In this document: one piece after another, positions 13,920-46,533 of the stretch
Numbering within the stretch: position 1 is the stretch's first letter
Layout: each line of letters opens with the position of its first letter
From: a bacterium ADurb.Bin157
GTDB lineage: Bacteria > Muiribacteriota > Ozemobacteria > Ozemobacterales > Ozemobacteraceae
Direction: 5' to 3'
Assembly (NCBI GenBank): GCA_002070375.1
Contig: MWDD01000008.1
Coordinates: 14,260-78,259, forward strand
DNA length: 64,000 nt
Made by a program: the position numbers and the translations under genes
The notes under the pieces: generated by a model
Databases searched by the model: none
What the model saw: only the letters and a program-made list of their open reading frames with translations
Told to the model about the DNA's origin: nothing

Positions 13920-14420
13920 ATGATAAAATTTAAATTTATTTTTGTATTACTAATTTCTATCTTTGCAATCGGAATCACAATGCCCGGGTGCACAGCTTCA
14001 GCAGGCGATGAAGCACCCGAAATAAACGCAAAAAAATGGCTTAACACAGATACTTTTTCTTTGGCCGAAAACAATGACAAAGTTGTTATTGTTGAGTTTT
14101 GGGCAACTTGGTGCCCCCCATGCAGAGCAAGCATACCTCACCTTAAAGCCCTTCACGAAACCTACAAAGACAAAGGCATAATTCTGGTTTCTTTAACAAA
14201 TGAACCTGATTCACCAAAAATCACAAAATTCTGCTCTGATGCCGGCATGAACTGGATAGTCGGGCTCGGCAGCACCAGCGGCTCAAGCTATGGCGTAACC
14301 GGAATACCTCATGCTTTTATCGTTGTAAACGGGAAAATAGCCTGGAAGGGTCACCCCATGGCAGGATTAGACGAAGAAGTAAAAAAAATTGTAGATTCGC
14401 GCCCTGTTAAAGCAGAGTAA
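13920..14420 (+). CDS. TlpA/ResA-like periplasmic thiol-disulfide oxidoreductase
   Basis: Signal/lipoprotein N-terminus. Thioredoxin fold motif VVIVEFWATWCPPCRASIPHL and GIPHAFIV. Confidence 0.85.
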   Translation: MIKFKFIFVLLISIFAIGITMPGCTASAGDEAPEINAKKWLNTDTFSLAENNDKVVIVEFWATWCPPCRASIPHLKALHETYKDKGIILVSLTNEPDSPKITKFCSDAGMNWIVGLGSTSGSSYGVTGIPHAFIVVNGKIAWKGHPMAGLDEEVKKIVDSRPVKAE

Positions 14421-15415
14421 TGAAAAAACAAGAAATTGAATTTAAAGTTCTCAACATAATTGATCGCCTTGAAAAAGGGCAGCCAATTGAAGACAACGAG
14501 ATAGAACTTAAATCAGAATGGCCCAGAGACCATTTTAAAGCCGCGCGCCGAATCGCTGCTCATGCAAATTCGGCACGCGGCGAAACCATTATATGGATAA
14601 TAGGCATAGATGAAAAAAAGGGAGTCGTGGGCGCTAACTTCGAAGAGCTTTCTAACTGGTATGCAAAGGTAAGATCAAGATTTGACCAGATGTTAGCCCC
14701 TAATCTGGTAAGTCTTGCGATACCGTATAACGGCAAAACCGTTGTAGCATTAGTTTTCGAGACAGATCGCTCACCTTTTGTTATCAGAATACCAAATAGC
14801 AGCCCCGGTCCCGTAACCCACGAAGTTCCTTGGCGAGAAGCCAATTCTACCCGATCGGCAAGACGCTCGGACCTGATAAAGCTCTTGTATCCAATTAATA
14901 AAAGGCCAAGTCTTGAAATACTGGACGGCAAAATTGAATTGCAAAAATCCATATCTAATATAGGGCAAACCGGAAACTATCAGTGGAATCTGAGCATGAA
15001 AGTTTATTTTGTCACCTATTCAAACGAAACCGTTGTGTTTCCTTTTCACAGATGCAAAATACTTTTCAGAGCTCAGGGGCAACCCGACGAAAAGAAATTT
15101 TCAAACATTAGAATTGCACCGCCAACTTCTTATTCAAGCCGTGAATTCAAGGAAAAAACCCAGTCTCTGACCGTTAACAGCACAGAAAATGAAGTGCTTA
15201 TAAACACCGCCGGAATGGGTTATATCACGGCAGAATACTTTTCTTCAACTGACCCGGGGGCCAAATTATTCGAAGAAATTGAAGTCAAAACTCTTTTAAA
15301 AACTCATCATTCAGATGACCCTATACTGCTTGAAGCAGTGTTTACGCTTGTGCCGCACCGCGCTCAGCCGAGCGAAAGACTGTTAGGGGAATGGCGCGTA
15401 GAAAAAGAATCTTAA
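14420..15415 (+). CDS. Hypothetical protein; N-terminal region resembles an AlbA_2/Schlafen-type putative DNA-binding domain
   Basis: EIELKSEW...AARRIAAHANSARGETIIWIIGIDEKKGVVGA matches the E-x-K ... AfAN..GG.l.iGv.d.g.v.G pattern of AlbA_2. The C-terminal 200 aa are unrecognisable. The start shares 1 nt with the thioredoxin stop (TAATG). Confidence 0.55.
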   Translation: MKKQEIEFKVLNIIDRLEKGQPIEDNEIELKSEWPRDHFKAARRIAAHANSARGETIIWIIGIDEKKGVVGANFEELSNWYAKVRSRFDQMLAPNLVSLAIPYNGKTVVALVFETDRSPFVIRIPNSSPGPVTHEVPWREANSTRSARRSDLIKLLYPINKRPSLEILDGKIELQKSISNIGQTGNYQWNLSMKVYFVTYSNETVVFPFHRCKILFRAQGQPDEKKFSNIRIAPPTSYSSREFKEKTQSLTVNSTENEVLINTAGMGYITAEYFSSTDPGAKLFEEIEVKTLLKTHHSDDPILLEAVFTLVPHRAQPSERLLGEWRVEKES

Positions 15416-17015: not shown

Positions 17016-18119
17016 TTATAAACTGAAATAATCGCTTATTATACTGTCGGCAAAGCCTAACACTTTTGCCGACAGTTTTATTTTAGAGCCTGATATATCT
17101 ATATAACCTTTTTCTGCATGCTTATTTATGGTTTCGTAAAACTCAGCATTTTGTATTCCGTAATTGCGCTCTAAATCAGCAATATCCAGTCCAACTTCCA
17201 ATAATCTCAAATGGAGCATAATATATTCATTTCTCAGGTCTGTTACAGACAACTTTTCATAAATGGGGTCTAATTTGTTGAGCCATTCTTGAAGATTGGC
17301 AACATTGCTTATTCGAAAAGAATTATCAAAAGAAACTGCTGACGGACCTAACCCTAAATAGCTGCCTGCCAACCAATAATTTAAATTATGCTTACATTCA
17401 AACCCCGGTTTTGCATAGTTTGATATTTCATAATGCGTAAAGCCAGCATCAGCCAATACTTTTTTAACCTCAAACATTTCAGCCGGGCCAATTTCATCGG
17501 GATCGGCAATTTTTTTGTTCAAAACGGCATCATGCAGCGGAGTATTTTCTTCGACCCCCAAAAAATAAGCAGAAACATGCATTAATGGGTATTTCGTTAA
17601 AAACGAGCTTAAGCTCGTTGCAATTGTGTTACAACCCGGCACTCCGAGAATAAAATCACAGCTTACATTTTTTATTTTATTAAAAACATTGTCAAGCGCG
17701 TTGTAAACAGAGTTCATAAGAGTGTTTCTGCCCAATATTTTCAGTTCATTATCTTGAAGGCGCTGAACCCCCATGCTAATTCTTATATTGTATACTTGAG
17801 CCAAGAAATCTATTATCTCAACGGAAAGCGTTTCGGGATTAGTTTCTATAGTAAACTCACTAACCCCGCTTAAATCAATATTCTCGCCAATGATTTCAAT
17901 TATCTGCTCTATACCGGCCAAACCTAAAGCAGAAGGATTCCCGCCGCCGATAAAAATAGTTTCATATGCTTTTGCTCCGGGTAAAATGCGCTCCTTAGCT
18001 TCTTTTCTTAATTGATTTAAATACAAAGCAATGTCATCTTTGCAGGGAACCCTAGAGTAAAATGCACAATAACCGCATTTAGAAAGACAAAAAGGCACAT
18101 GAATATAAAGTGCTGACAA
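17016..18119 (-). CDS. hemW: Radical SAM heme chaperone HemW (oxygen-independent coproporphyrinogen oxidase-like)
   Basis: YIHVPFCLSKCGYCAF (CxxxCxxC), GGGNPS and a HemN_C-like tail. The start codon in the track is TTG. Confidence 0.88.
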   Translation of the reverse strand: MSALYIHVPFCLSKCGYCAFYSRVPCKDDIALYLNQLRKEAKERILPGAKAYETIFIGGGNPSALGLAGIEQIIEIIGENIDLSGVSEFTIETNPETLSVEIIDFLAQVYNIRISMGVQRLQDNELKILGRNTLMNSVYNALDNVFNKIKNVSCDFILGVPGCNTIATSLSSFLTKYPLMHVSAYFLGVEENTPLHDAVLNKKIADPDEIGPAEMFEVKKVLADAGFTHYEISNYAKPGFECKHNLNYWLAGSYLGLGPSAVSFDNSFRISNVANLQEWLNKLDPIYEKLSVTDLRNEYIMLHLRLLEVGLDIADLERNYGIQNAEFYETINKHAEKGYIDISGSKIKLSAKVLGFADSIISDYFSL

Positions 18120-18131
18120 TTTTATGGCCGC

Positions 18132-19778
18132 CTATAAATAATGATACCAGTCATGGCAATCAACGCAAGGTTTCGGCATAGAATTATTGTTTCTGAGACT
18201 TCGGGCAGAATCCAAGTTCCATATTTCTTTTAAACTATTTTCTTTAACGTTGCCAAGCGCATACTGCCCCTCAAAATCATAAGGACAAAAAGTTACCGCT
18301 CCGTTACTAAGCACGTACAAAGACAAAGCGGAATTTCTGCAGACCCGTCTTTTAACAGGTTCAAAATCTACTGTGCAAGTTTTTTTCAAAATATTATTAT
18401 AAGAAGACTCTCCCAATACTTGATACCAGCTAACTTCACTTCTTATGTGTTCGAATGGCCACACAAAATAGTAATCGTTAAAAACCGGCTTTACAGCTTG
18501 TTTATAATAGCCGATAAAGTTTTGTATATTTTTTTCGGTCTTTTCATGACGCACCAAAGTAACCCCTATATCGGGGAATTCCAGGTTGCTTTCTCGTCTT
18601 TTTTTTACAAACATCAAGAATTCTTTGATATTTTTCCACACACAACCCGACCGGTTCTTTTCAAATTCTTCAGGAGTGCAGCTGTCAACGCTTATTCTTA
18701 TTTGATTAAGAGATCTGAATGGAAAATCTTCAGGAAAATTAGTTTGCATAGAAGTTATTAAAACAGAATTGTATTTGGCGGATTCTTTTGCCATAGATGA
18801 TATAAAAGGATTCAAAAGCGGTTCGCCCATTCCTGAAAAGATCCATTTACAATCGTCTCCGAGCATAAAAGAAGAAGCTATCTTTGAAAAAACCTCTTGG
18901 CTCATATGCTCTCTATTTCGAGTCATTTTTGGATGCGGACATCCCAAACAAGAAGCTCTGCAATAATTTGACGGCTCAATAACAATATTTTTAGGACCGT
19001 ATTCTGTATATTTTTCTTCCCAGTTTGAATTTTTTAGCCAATTTTCATAAGAAAATTCAGGACCGGAGAACTCATCGATATCTTTTACGGTATTTGAAAA
19101 CGTGTAAACCGAGCGTTCTGAATTTATTCTTAAATCAACGTTTAAAGAAGGCTTTATTCTGGGACAATGACAGCTTCCCTTTTTAAATGGGTAGAGAGGC
19201 TTAAACAGCATCCATGAAAGCGCACCTCTGACCCTCATAAGATCGGGGTGACTTTTTTCTAATCCCAAGAGAAGATTCCCGTCAAAAACGTGCCATGCCG
19301 CTCCGGGCACACGGTCACATATTTCGGTAAAATCAAATGCCTCGCGTTTATGCAACCTGATGCTCTCAATTACAGCCTCAGATTCGACCAAAATATTACA
19401 AAGCGGAACAACTATCAATGTATCAAAACCAAATTCTTCAACAAGCGCCGCAAAAGGTTGTCCCAATAGAGTATCACAGCCGGAATCATTTTCTGTGTCC
19501 CAATGTTGCTGTTGCAAAAACATTGGCTTTTCAACCATTTTAGAAAGATCAAAAGTTCTAATTTTAATTCCGAGATTGGCCGCACTTTCGCTTATATCTT
19601 GTGTAACAAACGTATCGGGCAGAATAAGCACAAAATCGCTTACGCTGTTAATATGGCTTAACCTGCCATGCAAAATTTGTAGCAGAGCCCGGTCTTTAAA
19701 AACAAGTTCACACAAATTCACCTTATTTCTGTATAAGTTGTTTATTCCGTCAACGTAGTAAGCAATTCCTGTAGTCAT
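18132..19778 (-). CDS. Fusion protein: about 260-aa nucleotidyltransferase-like N-domain + radical SAM core + SPASM C-terminal domain
   Basis: SNYCRASCLGC (CxxxCxxC), FSGMGEPLLNP, and the C-terminal Cys cluster CRNS...FCPYDF...GNVKENSLKEIW...CVDCHDW. The N-domain pattern resembles SpsF/CMP-sugar cytidylyltransferase folds. The ATG shares one nt with the stop of the upstream 65-aa ORF. Confidence 0.85.
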   Translation of the reverse strand: MTTGIAYYVDGINNLYRNKVNLCELVFKDRALLQILHGRLSHINSVSDFVLILPDTFVTQDISESAANLGIKIRTFDLSKMVEKPMFLQQQHWDTENDSGCDTLLGQPFAALVEEFGFDTLIVVPLCNILVESEAVIESIRLHKREAFDFTEICDRVPGAAWHVFDGNLLLGLEKSHPDLMRVRGALSWMLFKPLYPFKKGSCHCPRIKPSLNVDLRINSERSVYTFSNTVKDIDEFSGPEFSYENWLKNSNWEEKYTEYGPKNIVIEPSNYCRASCLGCPHPKMTRNREHMSQEVFSKIASSFMLGDDCKWIFSGMGEPLLNPFISSMAKESAKYNSVLITSMQTNFPEDFPFRSLNQIRISVDSCTPEEFEKNRSGCVWKNIKEFLMFVKKRRESNLEFPDIGVTLVRHEKTEKNIQNFIGYYKQAVKPVFNDYYFVWPFEHIRSEVSWYQVLGESSYNNILKKTCTVDFEPVKRRVCRNSALSLYVLSNGAVTFCPYDFEGQYALGNVKENSLKEIWNLDSARSLRNNNSMPKPCVDCHDWYHYL

Positions 19779-19975
19779 CAGACATACATATCGACAACCA
19801 TGCCGATCCCGGTCATTTCAGCAACCACCGAATTTTGGGCGGCTGCAACTTTCAACATTTTTTCAGCCAATTCTGTAGATGCTTTTTGAGTATTTTCAAC
19901 AATTTGCATCATCTGAGCATTATTCGAGCTTATTGAAGAAATTGCCCTATTGTTCGTTGCATTACTGACATTCAT
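19778..19975 (-). CDS. 65-aa peptide resembling the YjfB putative motility protein family
   Basis: Good RBS (AAAGGAG, 6 nt, ATG). Has no Cys, Trp or His. The ...STELAEKMLKVAAAQNSVVAEMTGIGMVVDMYV tail resembles the YjfB pattern (helical Q/A-rich segment, then G..iD..v). Sits in the flagellar operon. Confidence 0.5.
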   Translation of the reverse strand: MNVSNATNNRAISSISSNNAQMMQIVENTQKASTELAEKMLKVAAAQNSVVAEMTGIGMVVDMYV

Positions 19976-20011
19976 AAACGACTCCTTTTGATCGCGCAGT
20001 AACTAACTGCT

Positions 20012-20578
20012 CTACACTGCCAGATTCAATCTTGGGCGTTGCTGAGCGGTTTTATTATTGCCTTGGTTTTGTTGCATCGCTTGTTCCCAGGTGTTTCTCA
20101 AGTCTAATACCAGTGGTTTAATTTGCAACATGGGCTTTGGATCTTTTTTAACATTGGCTTCACTTAGTTGTCGCATGAAGAAAAGGTATAATCTTTCAAG
20201 ATTTGCTGCTATTTCTCCGCCTTTTTCTTTATCAAGCGATGATAATAGTTCACTGAAAATCGCCTGCACTCTTACAAGCAAATTACTTATTCTCTCTATA
20301 TTTTTTTCTTCAAATGCTTCTTCCGCCTGTCCCATGAATCTAAGTGCTCCGTCGTAAAGCATCAAGATTAAATTTTCGGGCGTGGCAGTTTCAATTTGTG
20401 TCTTTTTATATGTATCGTTCTGGGTCTTATTATACCCGGCGACATTTGTCCCGACACCGGGGGATTGTGATGGATTGGCTGATTCGCCCGAAGGTCGGTA
20501 TGCTGAAGCAGCAAATCGCCGGCCGGCAGGAACGGGCGGATAACCACCTCCACTCGGAGGATTTCCCGGTTGATTCAT
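20012..20578 (-). CDS. fliS: Flagellar export chaperone FliS with Pro/Gly-rich N-terminal extension
   Basis: Core ...ATPENLILMLYDGALRFM... plus a four-helix region. The ATG directly follows the maf stop (TAAATG), with AGGAG 7 nt upstream. No alternative in-frame start closer to the core. Confidence 0.9.
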   Translation of the reverse strand: MNQPGNPPSGGGYPPVPAGRRFAASAYRPSGESANPSQSPGVGTNVAGYNKTQNDTYKKTQIETATPENLILMLYDGALRFMGQAEEAFEEKNIERISNLLVRVQAIFSELLSSLDKEKGGEIAANLERLYLFFMRQLSEANVKKDPKPMLQIKPLVLDLRNTWEQAMQQNQGNNKTAQQRPRLNLAV

Positions 20579-22483
20579 TTAATTACTCCTTTTGGCTGTC
20601 TGCATAGAGCTTACAGCTCTATTTATCAGGGGAGTTTGATACTCTATAAATCTATCAAAAGCAACGAAAAATTCAAGCACTGTTTTTAGCCAATGTCCAA
20701 CAGTTACATTTTTTTCTGTTTTTAGTCTGGTCACTTCCATTGAATGCTTAGTAATAAACTTAGCTTGATGAGTAGACATCCAAGAATATAAAATAGCATC
20801 TCTGCATATTATATCATGCAGAGCCATAATGTCATCACATTCTGCTTTTGCCTTACCTGCAACATCTCTGTATAAAGTGTTTTCATGAGTCTTAAGTATT
20901 CTGGCAATTACCGATAAATTTCTTCTTGTTTTGCTTTGATATTTTAAAATTGACGATTTAATTACTTCAAAAGCTCTTATCAGCTTTTCTTTTTCGGCTT
21001 TAACCGGCGCATTAAAAGCCTGATTAAGTATTTCACTCACATTCACGGCTTTTTCTATATATTTCTCTATGGTTTCAGAAAAAGTCATTCTTTTTACATA
21101 TTTATGAACAATGCCGCCTTCTGTAGCGTTAATAATCTCGGCATCGGTCTGCCTAAACTGGTCTTCAAACCAGTCTTTGTATATATTCATAGACTTGTCT
21201 GTATAAACTTTTGTTCCGTCTGATAGGTTATAGACTATTTTTCCTCTGGTATTTATGTATTCGGCGGTTTCGTGTTCTATTGATGAATACTGATTAACTC
21301 TTTCATAAAGCATATCGTCAGAATAAGAGCCTCTGGCATGCAATCTGCCGTCAGCAAAAGAAAGATCCAGGCCTAAGAATATAATTGGATCTGCACCTAT
21401 TTTTCTGACCAAATCAAAAACAGTAGTTGCTATAGAACCCCAGCAAACAAGCATACCGACCGGTTCTCTGAATTCTGAGTAAACAGGGAATAAGCCGCCC
21501 CCAAAGGTCATTAACATTTTTTGTCCATTAAAAACATTAAATATATCGGGGTGAGTCATTGGCTCAACAGCCAAAATCACATCTTTTTCATTCTCGACCC
21601 CAACAAAATCAAGTGAGTTTTCGTATGAAGAGTCAGCAGCACAAACTATGTCAGGCTTGATTCCATTTGTCACAAGTTGCCTTAATGCAGTATCTACAGC
21701 TATAATAGGAAACTTTCCTTTAATTTTATGCAATAAATGCATATTTTTATCTAAAGATGGTCCTGCAGCAACTAAAACGGCAGGTACACCGACAAATTTA
21801 TCAAAAAGTCTTTGAACTCCCGGTAATTCAAAGGCTTGTGCCAAGTTTTCAAAATTATGGGAATGATATTCAAACCCGCTGTACATTAATGTAATAAGAT
21901 TGCCTTTTGACTTATTACATAGATATCTTATTTTTTCAAGCAGTCTTTCAACGTATTCTCTGAACCTAACCAAAGTCGGAGGGTGATCCACGACACAAAA
22001 TTCACCTATAGTGGTCCAGTCAATTAAAGTAGCCCACACATCGCCAATTTCATCGGGTGTCATGGCAACAAAAAGCGAAACGCGCTTATCATTCAAAAGT
22101 TTTGATAAATCCCTTGTTTTTAGTGCTATATAAAATATATTTTTGTCAGGCTCAACAATATCTATCCTTGTTATGTCGGTATTTTCGGCTAAGTTCTGTG
22201 CAGTGTAACCAAGACCGAAGCCCATCAGCATCACATGATTTTGTCCCGAATACACACCTTTAACCTGTTTTTCGGCTTCTTTAACAGGATCATACTTACT
22301 GTGATAGGCTAATATTTTGTTTTCTGACTCTGAATATGTGATAAAAGGCTCATTTGTTTTTGCAGTTTCGACACAATATGAAGAGAGGTCAACATTTTGT
22401 TTTGCCATACTGTTAATGACAAAAAATGCTGATCCGTGTTGTTTCAAAGCAACCATATTTTTTTCGAATATATGCTTGTCCAT
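20579..22483 (-). CDS. maf: Motility-associated factor (Maf) glycosyltransferase family protein (MptE-like/DUF115 domain)
   Basis: Size and central ...VLVAAGPSLDKN...IIAVDTALRQL...PDIVCAADS... are typical of Maf flagellin glycosyltransferases. Flagellar context. Confidence 0.8.
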   Translation of the reverse strand: MDKHIFEKNMVALKQHGSAFFVINSMAKQNVDLSSYCVETAKTNEPFITYSESENKILAYHSKYDPVKEAEKQVKGVYSGQNHVMLMGFGLGYTAQNLAENTDITRIDIVEPDKNIFYIALKTRDLSKLLNDKRVSLFVAMTPDEIGDVWATLIDWTTIGEFCVVDHPPTLVRFREYVERLLEKIRYLCNKSKGNLITLMYSGFEYHSHNFENLAQAFELPGVQRLFDKFVGVPAVLVAAGPSLDKNMHLLHKIKGKFPIIAVDTALRQLVTNGIKPDIVCAADSSYENSLDFVGVENEKDVILAVEPMTHPDIFNVFNGQKMLMTFGGGLFPVYSEFREPVGMLVCWGSIATTVFDLVRKIGADPIIFLGLDLSFADGRLHARGSYSDDMLYERVNQYSSIEHETAEYINTRGKIVYNLSDGTKVYTDKSMNIYKDWFEDQFRQTDAEIINATEGGIVHKYVKRMTFSETIEKYIEKAVNVSEILNQAFNAPVKAEKEKLIRAFEVIKSSILKYQSKTRRNLSVIARILKTHENTLYRDVAGKAKAECDDIMALHDIICRDAILYSWMSTHQAKFITKHSMEVTRLKTEKNVTVGHWLKTVLEFFVAFDRFIEYQTPLINRAVSSMQTAKRSN

Positions 22484-22493
22484 TTTTAATTTA

Positions 22494-23156
22494 TCAAGCT
22501 CTCAGAAGCTTCTCCACAAAGACTTTAACGTCGGTAAATATTTCGGAAAATTCATATTCCAAAATATCCGCTACCTCGATCCAGTTTTCTTGAACCTGAG
22601 CAATCTCAATGGCCGCCATTTGCTCTGCTAAGCGTTTCATTATGGCTTCTCTTTCTATTTCCAGTGAAGATTCCGCCATATTAGCAGCAAAAGCTCTGTC
22701 TGCATTTTTAAACATCGCTACCAACCACTCGATGGCATCAACAAACTTAACATATTCGGCCATAGCTTCTTTAACACGACCTAACCGCAAGTCTGAAGAT
22801 ATTTCGGCCGCTATGTTTTCAAGATAAGTAAGCCCTTCGGCAGCGTCTTTAAACCCCTCAAGAACCATTTCTTTAGCGGTAGCCGCCCCCAATTCTATCT
22901 TCTTGTAAGAGGTTATCTTTAAATCACCCAACGTTCCCGGATTATCTGGAGAATACCAGGTTCCGTCGAGAATGATATCTACAACTGTTCTGCCGCTGCC
23001 CTTCAAAGCTTTTTCAACTGTATCCACCAGCTCTAAGACAGAAGCACCATCATTAATTCCTTCAACATCAAGCGCATTCCCATTTAGTAAAATTTCCAAA
23101 TTTTCACCTGCACATTTTATATTATTTAGATTGTCCCTGAGAAAGCATACTTGCAA
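22494..23156 (-). CDS. Hypothetical flagellar-operon protein (about 200-220 aa), helical C-terminal half
   Basis: The track ORF starts at a TTG overlapping the fliD end by 35 nt. An in-frame TTG at 23099, preceded by AGGTGA, would start after the fliD stop. I recognise no family. Confidence 0.55.
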   Translation of the reverse strand: MQVCFLRDNLNNIKCAGENLEILLNGNALDVEGINDGASVLELVDTVEKALKGSGRTVVDIILDGTWYSPDNPGTLGDLKITSYKKIELGAATAKEMVLEGFKDAAEGLTYLENIAAEISSDLRLGRVKEAMAEYVKFVDAIEWLVAMFKNADRAFAANMAESSLEIEREAIMKRLAEQMAAIEIAQVQENWIEVADILEYEFSEIFTDVKVFVEKLLRA

Positions 23157-26109
23157 AAGAACTGGACTGAGACTGATATTCGCTCATCGCGGATTCTAAG
23201 GCAGAGAATTGCTTTAACAAGGCTTCTTCACGCATTACAAGTCTTGATTGCTGAGAAGCAATCTGCTGATTCAAAGACTTTATCTGGGTGTCCATCTGAC
23301 TTGTTACAGATGAATCCGAACGTCCGACGCGCTTAGTCAGTATACCGGTCGATGATGTAAACGCGTTAAGAACATCTTTTAAATTCTTAGCAATACCGAC
23401 ACCTTCTTTGCTTTCGTTAAAAAGCGCGGCAACTTCATTAGGATTATTTGCCAAAGCATTTTTAAGAGCGTCTTCATTTGTTATGCTGATTTTACCCAAC
23501 ATGGTTTCAGTGTATGAAGAACCTATAGTACCGGTGGTAATTCCAATGTCTGACAAACTGTTAAAAGAAGAATCAACACCTTTAACAACAGCTGACATTG
23601 CAGCACGCATTTGAGAACGTATAGTTCTCAGTGTTGAGTCACCGCGCAGCAAACCGACTTTATAGGCATCTATGTAAGTATTCAAAGTTTCGTCATCCAA
23701 TGAATCTATTTCTTCATCGGAAAGGGCGGTAAGTTCTTTGTTAGGCTCTGAGGTTAAGTGTTTATAAATAAGTTCCGTAACTTCATTATAGCTTTCCACA
23801 AAGCCCTTAACAGCTTCCAGGGCAGCATCTGTGTCTACAGAGACATTAATTGTTTCACCCGCGCCTGTGGTAACATTTTTAAGCTCAAATATTACGCCTT
23901 CGACCGCGTCTCCGATAACATTTGTCTGACTTACCTGTTCAGCGCCGCCGTATAGGCCATCTACACTAAATATGGCATTCTGTCCGATGTTTTGCACTGC
24001 ATTTGTAAGCCCCATAGCCGAAAGAAAATTACTTGTATCGGTAGGCGCCCCTATCGCTATAGATTGGTTTCCGGTTTCTTTTGAAGTTAATATAAATTGT
24101 CCGCTTGTTGGGTCATATTGAGCCGTTGCACCAACTTTATCATTGCTGTTTATCATTTGAATAATTGAATCAACAGTCGTATTTGAAGTGTTTTTGATTT
24201 CAAACTCAACACCATTAATACTAAATTTTCCCGTGGAAACCGGAGTAACAAAACCTGCTTCATCTAAGGAAGAAGAAGAAGAGTTTATGCCTGAAATGGA
24301 TCTTGAACCGGTCAAAGTCGAACCAAAATCTTTGCCTTCTGCTGTTCCGTTTAACCCCATTCCAGAAATCAGAGTCCCGGCCCCTGAATCCGCAACAGTT
24401 ATTCTTGAACTGCTTCCTTTATCTGAGCCTTGAACAACAAAACGACCTTTTTCAACATCATAATAAGCTTGTTCCACACCGTTAACCGATGCCATTTTTT
24501 TCAAAACATCTTGATAAGAGTCTGTTTCGCTGTAATTTATCTCGGTGGTTTCACCGTTCACAGTTATTTTAAACGCCCCTGAAGCGCCGATAGCATTTTT
24601 GGTATCGGCATAACCTGAAACCAAAGACTGAGAAGAGCCGGTCAGAACCGCCGCAGAACTTTGAGAGCCGGAAATCATCCCTGTTGCCCTCAAGAAATTA
24701 CTTGAATCAGTTGCTGAGCCGACACCAATGGCAGCAGAACTGCCATCTTTACGGGTAAAGCTTATGGTATCGGTGTTTGAATCATAAGATGCTCTGACGT
24801 TTGTCAAAGAAGTTATTCTCGACAAAACATCACTGAGCTTATCGGTATCTGCATTTATATCTATCTGAACCCCGTCTACGGTAATTTTACCGGACGATAT
24901 TTTTGAAGCAAACGTTTCTTCTGAAAGTGTTTTCGCGTCATCTGCCGAAACGCCTGTAGTCGCTGAAGAAGAACCAAAAAGAGTTGAAGCGAAATTCCCG
25001 TAACTTAGAGCATCATCAGTAACGCTTATAGAGCGCGTATCTGTTGAATCTGTGTTTATAAGTTCAAGCTTGCCCGTCACGTCATTGTATCTGAATTCTG
25101 AAGCATAATTCGCAGGATTTGAGGTGGCAACACCGCTCTTACTGAAAGCGCCGCCGGCTTGGCCAAGCTGACGATTCATTTCGGAGATTATGTCTTCCAT
25201 GGTTGCGTCTTCAGGAAAACTGTCAAGATCATCTAAATTTATAGTTACAGAAGTTGCGCCTTTAGTAAGACTAAAACTTCCCTTCAACCCCAAATCACTT
25301 TTAAGGGTTTCTAACCCCGAACGAATCTCTTTATTTGAGTTTGCGGCAGGAGTTGCGCTATTTAAACTCACAACGGCACTGCCAAAAAGGTTGGCATTCA
25401 AACCATCGTCTGAAGCATCGGTAAATGTTACATTTTGGACAGAGTTATCAAGAAGATTGAACCTAATTTGGTTATTCTTTTCATCGTAACTTGCCCGAAC
25501 CTTATCTTTAAAGTTTGCGTCAGATGCAATTTGAGCATTAATTTTTTGAATTGCGGAACCAACCGTATCGTCTTCGCTGATATTGGACAGCGATAAACTG
25601 TGAGTTGAACCGTTTGAAGCAGTTAAATCAATATTAAGGCCGGCAAATGTTTCACCTGAATCATTTGAAACCCCCAAAACACTCAACTTAGTTGCGGTTC
25701 CGCCAATTTTATCGCTCCCGGTTAAAAGTTCGCCATTTTGCAAAGCACCCGCAAGTTTTGAGCTTGAAGCAACAGAGGAGGCCGTAGCAATCTGTTTAAT
25801 TTTAACTGTATAACTGCCAACGGCCGCGCCTGTTGTTGCTTTTGCAGTAACGAGCTTTTCGTCGGAAGACGAAACCTTTTTACTGGTAAATGTTTTACTT
25901 AAACTTAAGTCTGAGGCTTTTGTTTGGAGGTTATAGAGAGCTAAGTTAACTTCTCTTAGCATCTCTTGCTTATAGGTCAGAGTATTGCGTTTCCTCTCAA
26001 GACTGAATTTACTGAAGCTTTCTGCTTTGATTGTTTGTTCGATCAAAGCTTCAGTATCTAAGCCCGATGATAAACCGCTGATATAATTTCTTGATATACT
26101 ACTGACCAT
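23122..26109 (-). CDS. fliD: Flagellar filament capping protein FliD (HAP2), unusually long (995 aa) with five internal flagellin-IN-like modules
   Basis: N-terminus ISGLSSGLDTEALIEQTIKAES...KQEMLREVNLALYNLQ (FliD_N). C-terminus ...LRGDSTLRTIRSQMR...IKSLNQQIASQQSRLVMREEALLKQFSALESAMSEYQSQ (FliD_C). Confidence 0.95.
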   Translation of the reverse strand: MVSSISRNYISGLSSGLDTEALIEQTIKAESFSKFSLERKRNTLTYKQEMLREVNLALYNLQTKASDLSLSKTFTSKKVSSSDEKLVTAKATTGAAVGSYTVKIKQIATASSVASSSKLAGALQNGELLTGSDKIGGTATKLSVLGVSNDSGETFAGLNIDLTASNGSTHSLSLSNISEDDTVGSAIQKINAQIASDANFKDKVRASYDEKNNQIRFNLLDNSVQNVTFTDASDDGLNANLFGSAVVSLNSATPAANSNKEIRSGLETLKSDLGLKGSFSLTKGATSVTINLDDLDSFPEDATMEDIISEMNRQLGQAGGAFSKSGVATSNPANYASEFRYNDVTGKLELINTDSTDTRSISVTDDALSYGNFASTLFGSSSATTGVSADDAKTLSEETFASKISSGKITVDGVQIDINADTDKLSDVLSRITSLTNVRASYDSNTDTISFTRKDGSSAAIGVGSATDSSNFLRATGMISGSQSSAAVLTGSSQSLVSGYADTKNAIGASGAFKITVNGETTEINYSETDSYQDVLKKMASVNGVEQAYYDVEKGRFVVQGSDKGSSSRITVADSGAGTLISGMGLNGTAEGKDFGSTLTGSRSISGINSSSSSLDEAGFVTPVSTGKFSINGVEFEIKNTSNTTVDSIIQMINSNDKVGATAQYDPTSGQFILTSKETGNQSIAIGAPTDTSNFLSAMGLTNAVQNIGQNAIFSVDGLYGGAEQVSQTNVIGDAVEGVIFELKNVTTGAGETINVSVDTDAALEAVKGFVESYNEVTELIYKHLTSEPNKELTALSDEEIDSLDDETLNTYIDAYKVGLLRGDSTLRTIRSQMRAAMSAVVKGVDSSFNSLSDIGITTGTIGSSYTETMLGKISITNEDALKNALANNPNEVAALFNESKEGVGIAKNLKDVLNAFTSSTGILTKRVGRSDSSVTSQMDTQIKSLNQQIASQQSRLVMREEALLKQFSALESAMSEYQSQSSSFASMLSQGQSK

Positions 26110-26141: not shown

Positions 26142-26507
26142 TTACGCTTTTTTATCGAATATTATCCCAAGGTAGTTTTCCATCTTTGCGACCATATCAA
26201 GTACCTCTTCACTCGGATATTGTCGAATTACCTTGTCGTTTGAAGTGTCAACTACAGAAACCATAGTACGATGAGTTTCATCGTGAACTTTAAACTGCAA
26301 AGACCGTTCAAACACTTTTGCTGTCCTATTTAACTTATCGACTGCCTCGCTAAGATTCTTTTCATTATTTTGCAAAGATTCTTTAGGCGAATCGACAGAG
26401 ACAGGAGTCTCAACCGGTTTTTTTTCTGCGTTAGCCACACCGGAATGGCTTACCGGCGATGAACCACTTACGACACTTTTTACTGATCCTACGCTGTTAA
26501 CATCCAT
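26142..26507 (-). CDS. flaG: Flagellar protein FlaG
   Basis: C-terminal ...LQFKVHDETHRTMVSVVDTSNDKVIRQYPSEEVLDMVAKM... is the FlaG signature. I prefer Met at 26507 (AAGGAG 8 nt upstream) over the track start at 26555. Confidence 0.85.
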   Translation of the reverse strand: MDVNSVGSVKSVVSGSSPVSHSGVANAEKKPVETPVSVDSPKESLQNNEKNLSEAVDKLNRTAKVFERSLQFKVHDETHRTMVSVVDTSNDKVIRQYPSEEVLDMVAKMENYLGIIFDKKA

Positions 26508-26555
26508 GTTAGTTTCTCCTTTACAAACTTTAAAAATGCAAAAACCACAAAACAA

Positions 26556-34241: not shown

Positions 34242-35252
34242 TTAATCAATTGTTAGACAAGGATGAGTTCCTGCGCCTCTCCACCAAGCCGAAAATTCGG
34301 AAAAAGACATGGATCTTTCTACAGTAGTTGGCCACGGATCATTAAAATAAATTCTGCCTGAATCGTCTATTCCTGTTATTACCACATAATGGCCCTTAAC
34401 ATGCGCCACCAAAGGCTTGCCTGCTTTAATTTTTTCGCGCACCCATGATTCTGAGACGCACCAATTCATTTTTGCATTTGGGAAACCGTAATGCGCTGCT
34501 CCTCGAATTAAGCCTGCATGACCTGTGCCATCGCTTGCAGTGCTGCCGCAAATATTCCAAAGATTTGAGGCTAATTCGCTTACGTCTTTGCCGGTGTAAT
34601 AACTCAACACCATGGCCAAAGAAGTCGGGCCGCAAGCAGAGTTTGGTGCCGGGCAATTAACTTGTCTTTGACATTTTTTTGGTACATTGATAACCACTTT
34701 GCCGTTACTGCCTGTACTAACACGACCGGCAGTATTGGTTTCGCGCTGCTCATTAACAACTACAGGCTTGGGAGTTTTGCCTTCTGCTCCGTCTTTTGAA
34801 GCCGCAACACCCTCTTTTAAAGCAAGAGCACCGCCGTTTTTTGTATCGCCGGGGTAATAAGGTTCCACACCGGAGGCCGCTTTATCTGCTGTTGAAACAT
34901 AGTTTTTATGCATATAGCCTTGTTGGCCATTAATTTCAACTAAGTAAAATTCGCCCGACTCGCCCAAAACATTAAGAGGAGTGCCTGTAGTATAAGAAGC
35001 CTTTACATCACCCCAGGGCCAAGAACGTAAACGCAAAGTAGAATCACCTACGTTTACTATTCCCGTTTTTGGAAAACCTTCCTTTTCTGTAATACCCGAA
35101 GCCAATGCCACATCAACATCAACTATATTAGCGGGCATAGAAGCCACAGAACGAGCTGTAACGCTAACGGGGTTGCCTTCAAAGGGAGTTGCAAAAGAAA
35201 TGCTTGCAAACAACGATAAAATTAAAGCAAAAAACATATAATATCGTTTCAT
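34242..35252 (-). CDS. Secreted SH3b-domain protein with C39-like cysteine peptidase domain
   Basis: Signal peptide. SH3b LRLRSWPWGDVKASYTTGTPLNVLGESGEFYLVEINGQQGYMHKNYV. C39_2-like CGPTSLAMVLSYY ... GHYVVITGID. Confidence 0.75.
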   Translation of the reverse strand: MKRYYMFFALILSLFASISFATPFEGNPVSVTARSVASMPANIVDVDVALASGITEKEGFPKTGIVNVGDSTLRLRSWPWGDVKASYTTGTPLNVLGESGEFYLVEINGQQGYMHKNYVSTADKAASGVEPYYPGDTKNGGALALKEGVAASKDGAEGKTPKPVVVNEQRETNTAGRVSTGSNGKVVINVPKKCQRQVNCPAPNSACGPTSLAMVLSYYTGKDVSELASNLWNICGSTASDGTGHAGLIRGAAHYGFPNAKMNWCVSESWVREKIKAGKPLVAHVKGHYVVITGIDDSGRIYFNDPWPTTVERSMSFSEFSAWWRGAGTHPCLTID

Positions 35253-45540: not shown

Positions 45541-46533
45541 TTATTTTCGCTTTTTTCGCGGCTTTTCGGATTTATATTTGGCTGTAGTTTCGCAGACTCT
45601 GTTCTCGTTTGCCAGCAATTCAATCTGAGCAAGCGCCAGACCGGTGTATTTTTCGACTATCTCCGGCGACAATCCATCATTAAGCATTTTAAGTGCAACC
45701 TTTTTTGCTCTCAGAATATCGCCTTCTTCGCGACCTTCTTCGCGACCTTCTGCCCGACCTTTTAACATACCTTCTTCTATGCCTTCTTCGCGACCTTCTC
45801 TTCTTGCGGCGTCTAGGTCTGTTGCAAGATCGCTTAAAAACATATCTCTGGCGAAAAGTTCGTGTCGGGTTAATTCATCTGTGTTTGCGTTGCTCATGTT
45901 GCTTATCACCTCGCATATACCTTCTTCGCTTCTAAGTGCCTCCGGTAGATCATCTATACTTCGATAATAATTGCCAAACTTTAAAATATGCAGCCATTTT
46001 TCAAACTTGCTTCGCAGTTTTGTCGGTTTGTCGCCATCAAATTTCGACAGCTCAACAAAATGATATTCAAGCAAATCTGTCAGTACTCTGTTGGTTTTGT
46101 CATGTTTGATCAAGTATTTGTTATATATATCCGGGTCGGGAAGCACCGTTTCGCACATTATCCATAAGCAAAGAGTTTTATTCAGGTCTGTATATTTTTC
46201 ACCGCGTAACATTTCTCCGGAGTAGCTGACTGCCGAATAATAAAGCACTCTCTTTAATATTTCCGCGTGTGCTTTTACCTGAACTTCGACGCAGAAGACT
46301 TCGCCCCGTTTGTTCTTTGCTTTAACGTCTATCACCGATTGCTTACCGCCCTGAAAATCGGGCAGGTTAATCGGGTTCAGTATCTCCAGTTCTTTAATTT
46401 CCTGCTCGCCTCTGTATTTTAACAGGGCATTAAGCAACAAGGCCAAAAGCTTTTCGTTGCCTTTGCGCCCGAACACTATCTTAAACAACAAATCATTTGT
46501 CAGACCAAAATATTTATCGTATGCACTGTTCAT
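45541..46533 (-). CDS. Rpn family recombination-promoting nuclease / PD-(D/E)XK putative transposase (PDDEXK_2, T_den_put_tspse-like)
   Basis: N-terminus LTNDLLFKIVFG...LLALLLNALL, nuclease core SVIDVKAKNKRGEVFCVEVQV, and the characteristic C-terminal EGREEGIEEGMLKGRAEGREEGREEG repeats. Confidence 0.8.
   Translation of the reverse strand: MNSAYDKYFGLTNDLLFKIVFGRKGNEKLLALLLNALLKYRGEQEIKELEILNPINLPDFQGGKQSVIDVKAKNKRGEVFCVEVQVKAHAEILKRVLYYSAVSYSGEMLRGEKYTDLNKTLCLWIMCETVLPDPDIYNKYLIKHDKTNRVLTDLLEYHFVELSKFDGDKPTKLRSKFEKWLHILKFGNYYRSIDDLPEALRSEEGICEVISNMSNANTDELTRHELFARDMFLSDLATDLDAARREGREEGIEEGMLKGRAEGREEGREEGDILRAKKVALKMLNDGLSPEIVEKYTGLALAQIELLANENRVCETTAKYKSEKPRKKRK
45722..45757 (-). repeat. 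12-nt tandem repeat CCTTCTTCGCGA x3 (third copy degenerate), coding for the EGREEG repeats of the Rpn-like protein
   Basis: Read directly. A fourth copy is at 45782-45793. Confidence 0.7.

Follow-up and report, generated by a model that had tools for sequence, protein, structure and literature searches.

Does a small open reading frame that overlaps the gene of a radical S-adenosylmethionine (SAM) enzyme, at the tail of a late flagellar operon, encode the substrate of that enzyme, or do the two products serve separate steps in the making of a flagellum? The question is raised by a 64-kb stretch of contig MWDD01000008.1 from bacterium ADurb.Bin157 (Ozemobacteraceae), an uncultured member of Candidatus Riflebacteria, called the window here, in which a peptide of 65 amino acids (aa), pep65, precedes a 548-aa enzyme on the minus strand. 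The original prediction, made from the sequence of the window, had offered two roles for the enzyme: modification of the peptide, or tailoring of a nucleotide sugar for the adjacent Maf glycosyltransferase. Both reading frames, and the good ribosome binding site of pep65, were recovered as described. From gene structure, conservation, domain folds, cysteine pattern and gene neighbourhoods we infer a role for pep65 and a substrate and chemistry for the enzyme. The reading favoured, with a confidence that falls a little short of even, is that pep65 belongs to the fliS block as a YjfB-like small protein of the flagellum and that the enzyme tailors a nucleotide sugar for Maf-dependent flagellin glycosylation. 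Coordinates are positions in the window, and L-numbers (L001-L073) denote homologous loci gathered for comparison.

Three parts were recognised in the enzyme, in agreement with the architecture first proposed: an N-terminal domain (N-domain) of about 260 aa, a radical-SAM core with the motif CRASCLGC (C273-x3-C277-x2-C280), and a SPASM-type tail. The Pfam SPASM model matched aa 480-542 (E 2.5e-13, 50.6 bits, cut-off 21.5), and Radical_SAM (PF04055) matched aa 267-393 at E 8.4e-5 and 23.2 bits, under its gathering score of 29.5; models for YjfB, cytidylyltransferases and PqqD or the RiPP recognition element (RRE; RiPP, ribosomally synthesised and post-translationally modified peptide) gave no match for the window pair. 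Across 18 homologues, C273, C277 and C280 were invariant, as were G316, G318, E319 and P320 of the SAM-binding motif GMGEP. Beyond the core, only C480, C498, C538 and C541 were invariant in the same set, with C379 nearly so. The seven-cysteine SPASM motif (CX9-15GX4C - gap - CX2CX5CX3C - gap - C) was not found in the enzyme, which ends 7 residues past C541. In this respect the earlier description is amended: judged by its four cysteines, the tail is a BtrN-like Twitch domain for one auxiliary [4Fe-4S] cluster and not a full SPASM domain. The NF033640 'twitch' model matches aa 479-543.

A profile of the core and tail of the enzyme family was searched against the PDB. The best solved relative was BtrN (E 4.6e-15), followed by anSME (E 8.9e-7), DesII (E 5e-4), BlsE (E 1.5e-3), YydG (E 2.5e-3) and SpeY (E 5.9e-3). 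Sugars, aminocyclitols or nucleoside sugars are the substrates of most of these matches, several of which are radical-SAM dehydrogenases. AlphaFold modelled the enzyme with a mean predicted local distance difference test (pLDDT) score of 87.7 and a predicted template modelling (pTM) score of 0.88, and in a Foldseek search the C-terminal part of the model resembled SuiB, BtrN (second match, TM 0.70), DesII, SkfB, anSME and PqqE. In BtrN, the 2-deoxy-scyllo-inosamine dehydrogenase of the butirosin pathway (PDB 4M7T), as in the enzyme, a short Twitch domain comes after the radical-SAM core and the chain ends soon after the CxxC; the cysteine pattern C-x17-C ... C-x2-C can be aligned between the two. 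C498 and C538-x2-C541 align with PC and LCKNC in the twitch region of BtrN, which ligates its auxiliary cluster. The two proteins differ in that BtrN has 250 aa, lacks the N-domain and has as its substrate a free aminocyclitol of an antibiotic pathway, whereas the enzyme carries an extra 260-aa cytidylyltransferase-like domain and belongs to a flagellar operon; pairwise identity is 14-17%.

The rank of anSME as second-best solved relative by profile, together with the location of the enzyme gene between fliS and glycosylation genes, bears on an explanation in which the enzyme modifies some other flagellar protein, e.g. flagellin held by FliS or Maf, through side-chain oxidation in the style of anSME. 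The cysteine pattern is that of BtrN and not of the two-cluster anSME, and the N-domain resembles a fold that binds small molecules (nucleotide sugars), so this explanation is considered the least probable of those weighed here.

Within NCBIfam, the top match for every enzyme-family member tested was spiro-SPASM (TIGR04321), an uncharacterised family of spirochetes. The window enzyme scored 78.3 bits and ten other members 42-99 bits against a trusted cut-off of 250, and the enzyme family is therefore a sister of TIGR04321 and not a member of it. Model positions from ~120-190 up to 506 of 510 align colinearly, the first 120-190 staying unaligned; given a similar overall length, spiro-SPASM may have the same three-part layout. 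The families differ in phylum, spiro-SPASM belonging to Spirochaetota and the enzyme family to Riflebacteria. Full-text searches for spiro-SPASM, TIGR04321, TP0873, or radical SAM combined with flagellin glycosylation yielded nothing relevant.

Two other sets of radical-SAM proteins were considered and set aside. Proteins of 606 aa from an Azospirillum megaplasmid were rejected as examples of the same architecture without a peptide because BLASTP aligned aa 211-541 only and the N-domain reached an hhalign probability of 0.1. Radical-SAM/SPASM genes on a Brachyspira plasmid encode 304 aa with no N-domain and represent merely related cores inside sugar clusters. As a separate observation, beta-glucosidase genes of glycoside hydrolase family 1 (GH1) flank the radical-SAM gene at L031 (6474-7877) and at L073 (Azospirillum plasmid NZ_CP032323.1, 10017-12863); the radical-SAM gene of L073 is a distantly related tetratricopeptide repeat (TPR)-radical-SAM/SPASM gene, and the parallel with the outlier L031 may be coincidence.

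The N-domain had been described as a degenerate cytidylyl- or nucleotidyltransferase fold, and structure prediction bears this out. Pfam and NCBIfam searches with 12 N-domains gave zero matches at E<=10, the fold being visible through structure prediction only. In the AlphaFold model, pLDDT was mostly 86-97 in the core of the N-domain (aa 31-190) and 76-94 in the rest of the domain. Foldseek matched the N-domain to the Leptospira cytidylyltransferase 6OEW (E 9.5e-9, probability 1.0, TM 0.74-0.76, root-mean-square deviation 3.8-4.0), and further matches included the synthetases of cytidine monophosphate (CMP)-Neu5Ac, CMP-Kdn and CMP-Kdo as well as IspD, TarI and GlmU. A weak colinear match to 6OEW was also obtained by hidden Markov model (HMM) comparison (E 0.66). 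The fold is thus the same as in CMP-nonulosonate and CMP-Kdo synthetases and SpsF-like cytidylyltransferases (6OEW, 6IFD, 1H7E), and enzymes of the CMP-sugar synthetase type activate the sugars that Maf transfers. From these cytidylyltransferases the N-domain differs in matching no family model, in its fusion to a radical-SAM enzyme, and in its loop, which reads V-D-G-x-x-N-L-Y-R with only R17 invariant. The label 'degenerate' is apt because the phosphate-binding loop of active enzymes is unrecognisable.

Genes around the enzyme in several lineages are consistent with a glycan substrate. FkbH, acyl carrier protein, MaoC dehydratase, N-acetyltransferase, sugar C-methyltransferase and DUF4910 genes surround it at L016 and L018. 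At L022 there are a second Maf gene and HisF/HisH-like and amidotransferase genes of a type employed for acetamidino sugars, and at L067 a second Maf gene accompanies a PseB-like dehydratase. These neighbourhoods, and the sugar or nucleoside-sugar substrates of BtrN, DesII, BlsE and SpeY, favour the earlier suggestion that the enzyme tailors a nucleotide sugar for Maf.

A possible sequence of events can be outlined under this reading. Made together with FliS, pep65 would serve as partner to another protein during flagellar assembly or the handling of flagellin and not as a precursor for cross-linking. The cytidylyltransferase-fold domain, catalytically degenerate, would hold a CMP-linked or other nucleotide-linked sugar, the radical-SAM core would generate a 5'-deoxyadenosyl radical, and the BtrN-like Twitch domain would carry a single auxiliary [4Fe-4S] cluster. 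If it works as BtrN, anSME and SpeY do, the enzyme may then abstract a hydrogen from a sugar carbon and oxidise or otherwise tailor that position, by dehydrogenation and perhaps a subsequent epimerisation or elimination. The substrate may be the nonulosonic-acid donor, or a precursor of it, that the neighbouring Maf transfers to flagellin. In the window lineage the enzyme would be translated by coupling to pep65, while in most other lineages its expression may be low, with a terminator-like hairpin ahead of it and usually a weak start codon.

In order to establish whether the gene pair recurs, a census of gene order was carried out with phmmer and a peptide HMM. A total of 66 loci came from scans of genome and metagenome collections and 6 were added via peptide look-ups, with 48 distinct lineages offering informative upstream sequence. 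A Candidatus Riflebacteria genome encodes a protein 99% identical to the enzyme, and all 20 of the 20 word-indexed clusters of enzyme homologues were from Riflebacteria/Ozemobacteraceae. The order fliS-peptide-enzyme on one strand was found in 45 of the 48 lineages, nearly always with flaG-fliD-p220-maf ahead, which argues that the two genes are not a chance pair of reading frames and confirms the recurrence of the peptide upstream of the enzyme. The junction between the two was an overlap in 11 of the 45 lineages, a spacer of less than 400 nucleotides (nt) in 31, and 0.9-2.4 kb of inserted DNA in 3 (L016, L026 and L032), which at L016 and L032 includes an opposite-strand gene that parts the peptide from the enzyme. 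In the remaining lineages, L012, L030 and L031, the enzyme lies apart from any fli gene or peptide. The peptide gene is conserved behind fliS at every locus that holds fliS, at a gap of 7-48 nt (commonest 12-13 nt), and is bound to fliS as tightly as to the enzyme; where the genes are split (L016, L026, L032), it stays with fliS. As a side observation, the enzyme reading frame is broken in two at L025 (8145-9814) and L040 (8001-9619), through either sequencing-error frameshift or pseudogenisation.

This census also lends support to the alternative that pep65 is a substrate or obligate protein partner of the enzyme, giving a flagellum-associated modified small protein, for instance through epimerisation, C-methylation or cross-linking of a residue other than Cys close to the conserved C-terminal G-x-G-x-x-x-D. 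A peptide gene lies directly upstream and co-oriented in those 45 lineages, and RiPP maturases such as SuiB, PqqE, SkfB, AlbA and MftC share with the enzyme a small peptide gene directly upstream, a SPASM-type tail and the core fold, with SuiB, SkfB, PqqE and YydG among the structure or sequence matches. Against this stand the differences from RiPP systems. No RRE or PqqD was detected by Pfam and NCBIfam in the enzyme or as a partner gene in the operon, and the modelled N-domain has instead a Rossmann-like nucleotidyltransferase fold. One auxiliary cluster is predicted, where SPASM peptide maturases typically have two, and neither a protease nor an exporter of RiPP type was present inside or adjoining the operon. 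The sole protease candidate of that type in the window is a C39-like peptidase at 34242-35252, 15 kb away and with no exporter. The peptide itself shows no conserved Cys, Trp or Tyr target, the profile searches and the peptide alignment agreeing with the earlier remark that both RRE and target residues are lacking.

The architecture of the peptide-enzyme junction bears on both readings. The stop/start overlap of the window is joined by TGATG overlaps of 1 nt in L033, L034 and L040, and a rumen clade has a different, 8-nt overlap (ATGTCTGA); no separate Shine-Dalgarno sequence was read ahead of the window enzyme ATG. The translational coupling noted earlier thus stands for the window, and the sequences indicate that it is confined to two clades as two independent solutions and is not a trait of the family. 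In the 31 lineages with a spacer, 13-330 nt part the peptide from the enzyme, and at least 15 loci carry in this spacer a terminator-like hairpin with a T tract (dG -8 to -24 kcal/mol, mostly -14 or lower). GC-rich hairpins directly 3' of the peptide gene were seen, for example, in L008, L009, L010, L042, L046 and L064. In about 24 distinct Riflebacteria junctions among L001-L064 the apparent start codon of the enzyme is ATC, ATA or ATT (ATH), 4-9 nt past a strong GGGGG, GGGAG or GGAGG Shine-Dalgarno sequence, and is aligned with the ATG of the window enzyme (e.g. L042, L060). At some of these loci a stop codon stands in frame 2-6 codons before the ATH, and no canonical start was seen in them ahead of the invariant N-terminal strand; ATH seems to be a conserved weak, non-canonical start of the enzyme. 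Gene callers extend or truncate enzyme reading frames with ATH starts. In most lineages the enzyme is probably expressed via read-through of the hairpin or from a promoter of its own. Hairpin spacers and ATH starts together give the general layout of a flagellar operon that closes with the peptide gene, the enzyme gene coming after it with weak expression. Since a stoichiometric protein with a catalytic enzyme and a RiPP operon would both suit such an arrangement, it does not discriminate between the two readings.

For the substrate alternative, an abundant small gene, a hairpin and a weakly translated enzyme form the layout of many RiPP operons, and the overlap evolved independently in two clades, with TGATG in one and the 8-nt sequence in the other. 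On the other side, a hairpin or inserted genes often part peptide from enzyme, the peptide follows fliS when the genes are split, and the enzyme occurs with no nearby peptide in three lineages. The 7-48 nt tie to fliS, the interruptions before the enzyme and the wider YjfB-like family of the peptide leave the proposed role as substrate or partner unsupported, and this alternative is regarded as unlikely.

Sequence relatives of pep65 point to a flagellar small-protein family. Members have 56-66 aa and no Cys or Trp. They open with a stretch rich in Ser and Gly, keep a conserved middle section (..LMKILE..Q....DLAKKLIKV..) and close with a C-terminal G-x-G-x-x-x-D-x-Y/T/M/L-A/V. Invariance is limited to K39, G58 and D62; several lineages have T, M or L in place of the penultimate Tyr, and no residue that could serve as a radical target is invariant. 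A profile search of 1.84 billion representative proteins yielded 147 matches at E<=1e-3, nearly all of them 55-61 aa long and aligned end-to-end. About 120 of the 147 lie beyond the Riflebacteria clusters, one of them from the spirochete Salinispira pacifica; the peptide family thus ranges well past the known range of the enzyme family, a further point against pep65 as its substrate and, in belonging to a flagellar small-protein family, a difference from RiPP precursors.

The resemblance to YjfB suggested earlier holds at the level of a remote family relationship and not for the window peptide taken singly, for which PF14070 (YjfB_motility) gave no match even at E<=10. Among Riflebacteria peptides, 2 of 24 matched at E ~0.02, with a best score of 15.6 bits against a gathering score of 27. 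PF14070 also matched 8 of the 94 relatives ranked under the strongest Riflebacteria-like ones and was the sole Pfam family to recur, its best score being 24.4 bits (outside relative P0186), again below the gathering score; the alignments were colinear over model positions 3-57 of 57. The two families share a length of ~55-65 aa, freedom from Cys, a helical character, a C-terminal G-x-x-[ILV]-D-x-x-A and a flagellar context, and differ in that no pep65-family member or relative attains the 27-bit threshold. These alignments lend weak support to calling pep65 'YjfB-like' in the sense of remote kinship and not of membership. YbaB and DUF327 matches of the window peptide were rejected as chance-level and non-recurrent in the family. 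AlphaFold modelled pep65 as one long helix with a pLDDT of 58.6, a result that does not discriminate between the hypotheses and suggests that pep65 may fold upon a partner. YjfB has been described as an uncharacterised small protein within the flagellar sigma-28 sub-module (PMC11607428), and pep65 likewise sits in a flagellar operon context. Membership of the YjfB family would explain little, because YjfB itself has no known function.

A possible analogue of pep65, likened to it by description, is GlfM. According to the available account (bioRxiv 10.1101/2023.12.03.569772), GlfM (SO_3260) is an 89-aa helical adaptor encoded beside a TPR-less Maf-2 and required for flagellin binding; the window Maf likewise shows no detected TPR domain. 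As so described, it resembles pep65 in being a small, soluble, helical protein encoded near maf in flagellar clusters, and its essential Asp in the last helix may be compared with the invariant D62 near the C-terminus of pep65. The two differ in that GlfM is described with 89 aa and a predicted four-helix bundle, whereas the pep65 family has 56-66 aa and a single modelled helix of low confidence; p220 is an equally good candidate for a GlfM analogue.

Spirochete relatives exist for both the peptide (Salinispira) and the enzyme (spiro-SPASM), which adds to the case for pep65 as a substrate and suggests a broader variant, in which a YjfB-like protein and the enzyme form a functional pair common to Riflebacteria and spirochetes, the enzyme, as sister of a spiro-SPASM protein universal in spirochetes, modifying the small protein or needing it as a partner. 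Such a pair is considered quite improbable. As a side observation, p220, whose TP0873_N family is named after a Treponema pallidum protein, is a third connection between Riflebacteria and spirochetes in this operon.

Downstream of the enzyme, the neighbours vary (pterin-4a-carbinolamine dehydratase, NadA, HemW, FkbH). The most constant of them is a homologue of pterin-4a-carbinolamine dehydratase (Pterin_4a, GHHP motif), found 8-16 nt 3' of the enzyme at about 40 loci (e.g. L032, 9678-10004; L067, 7872-8207), including L012, which has no adjacent fli operon. The Pterin_4a gene is absent from the window, where HemW takes its position; among the loci compared, HemW follows the enzyme only in L033 and L034 and is thus a lineage-specific neighbour. 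The Pterin_4a association speaks for an alternative in which the enzyme is a housekeeping radical-SAM enzyme related to cofactor or pterin metabolism that works with the downstream dehydratase, its flagellar position being inherited synteny with no flagellar function. In many lineages terminator-like hairpins stand between the flagellar genes and the enzyme, metalloenzyme or tungsten-cofactor maturases rank second and third among the NCBIfam matches, MoaA matches L031 at E 7.6e-9, and the cofactor nucleotidyltransferases MobA and MocA have the same general fold as the N-domain.

Four lines of evidence run counter to a role in pterin or cofactor metabolism. Enzymes of different lineages share no more than 33-55% identity and the downstream genes change, yet adjacency to fliS and the peptide is kept; in two clades the enzyme is translationally coupled to the flagellar operon. 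Foldseek groups the N-domain with CMP-sugar synthetases, and neither MobA nor MoaA appeared among its top 50 matches. Furthermore, to our knowledge Treponema pallidum lacks pterin and molybdenum-cofactor synthesis. The nearest family to the enzyme, spiro-SPASM, is spirochetal, and a SPASM protein is listed for this organism (PMC4403809). A housekeeping role is therefore viewed as doubtful, though as the likeliest of the alternatives. The Pterin_4a link is explained well by none of the hypotheses.

Tailoring of a nucleotide sugar, the reading preferred here, has several observations weighing against it. It offers no explanation for the Pterin_4a link, and no nonulosonic-acid pathway genes were found within the 64-kb window. 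The conserved Arg/Lys phosphate-binding loop of cytidylyltransferases is not recognisable in the N-domain, and nucleotide binding by this domain is itself presumptive because the P-loop residues are not recognisably kept. Both the near-universal adjacency of peptide and enzyme and a hairpin that separates an abundant peptide gene from its enzyme are equally expected of a precursor-maturase pair, and the spirochete relatives of both proteins make a co-occurrence across phyla possible.

The features of the window locus are collected in Table 1. The window Maf aligns along the whole of NF050051 PseD (E 5.7e-30, under the cut-off), and no TPR domain was detected in it by Pfam. The window FliS has 188 aa, with a Pro/Gly/Ser-rich N-terminal extension of ~50 aa, and FliS of other Riflebacteria lineages has 142-148 aa. 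Homologues of p220 were present at all loci and have 201-220 aa; their PF27299 and PF26154 assignments come from precomputed annotations, our own Pfam search having given none. Two further genes in the window, encoding a Schlafen/AlbA_2-domain protein (14420-15415, plus strand) and a PD-(D/E)XK family transposase (45541-46533, minus strand), are unrelated to the pep65-enzyme pair.

Table 1. Coordinates of the pep65-enzyme pair, its sequence elements and domains, and the adjoining operon genes in the window.
Feature	Position	Strand	Description and evidence
pep65, 65-aa reading frame	19778..19975	minus	Putative small helical protein; last gene of the late flagellar block ending at fliS
Enzyme, 548-aa reading frame	18132..19778	minus	N-domain, radical-SAM core and predicted Twitch tail
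Shine-Dalgarno AAGGAG of pep65	19982..19987	minus	6 nt 5' of the pep65 ATG; read from sequence
TGATG stop/start overlap of pep65 and enzyme	19776..19780	minus	pep65 TGA 19780-19778, enzyme ATG 19778-19776, A at 19778 common to both
Enzyme N-domain, aa 1 to ~260	18999..19778	minus	Degenerate cytidylyltransferase-like (GT-A/NTP-transferase) fold predicted by AlphaFold and Foldseek
Radical-SAM core, aa ~262-470	18369..18995	minus	CxxxCxxC aa 273-280 (nt 18939-18962); GMGEP aa 316-320
Twitch-type (abridged SPASM) domain	18135..18368	minus	C480-x12-G493-x4-C498 ... C538-x2-C541, then 7 residues to the end
FliS flagellin export chaperone	20012..20578	minus	Pfam FliS E 4e-39; TIGR00208 E 8e-29
Maf/PseD-like flagellin nonulosonic-acid glycosyltransferase	20579..22483	minus	MptE-like E 3.7e-38; Maf_flag10_N E 4e-9
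p220, between fliD and maf	22494..23156	minus	PF27299 (TP0873_N) and PF26154 (DUF8042) on homologues
FliD filament cap	23122..26109	minus	FliD_N and FliD_C on homologues; synteny
FlaG	26142..26555	minus	Pfam FlaG E 3.6e-26
HemW-like radical-SAM heme chaperone	17016..18119	minus	12 nt 3' of the enzyme; TIGR00539 E 7.4e-65, over cut-off

We know of no radical-SAM enzyme assigned to Maf-dependent flagellin glycosylation, and full-text searches likewise revealed none. The system is an uncharacterised variant that combines a Twitch radical-SAM enzyme with a flagellin glycosylation island, and is set apart by its unusual fusion and its phylum-wide flagellar context; none of the papers retrieved describes it. 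Were pep65 a substrate, it would represent a new class of flagellum-tied modified protein; were the pair common to Riflebacteria and spirochetes, it would provide the first flagellum-associated radical-SAM-modified protein and a first function for both the YjfB and the spiro-SPASM families. If nucleotide-sugar tailoring is correct, a radical-SAM dehydrogenase-like enzyme with a CMP-sugar-type domain of its own would bring new tailoring chemistry to bacterial sialic-acid-like sugars. For the spiro-SPASM family the locus offers a first hint from gene context, as it does for YjfB-like proteins, small proteins widespread among flagellar loci and with no known function; with its function as proposed here, it also gives a clear lead for testing whether a radical-SAM step takes part in the tailoring of flagellin sugars.

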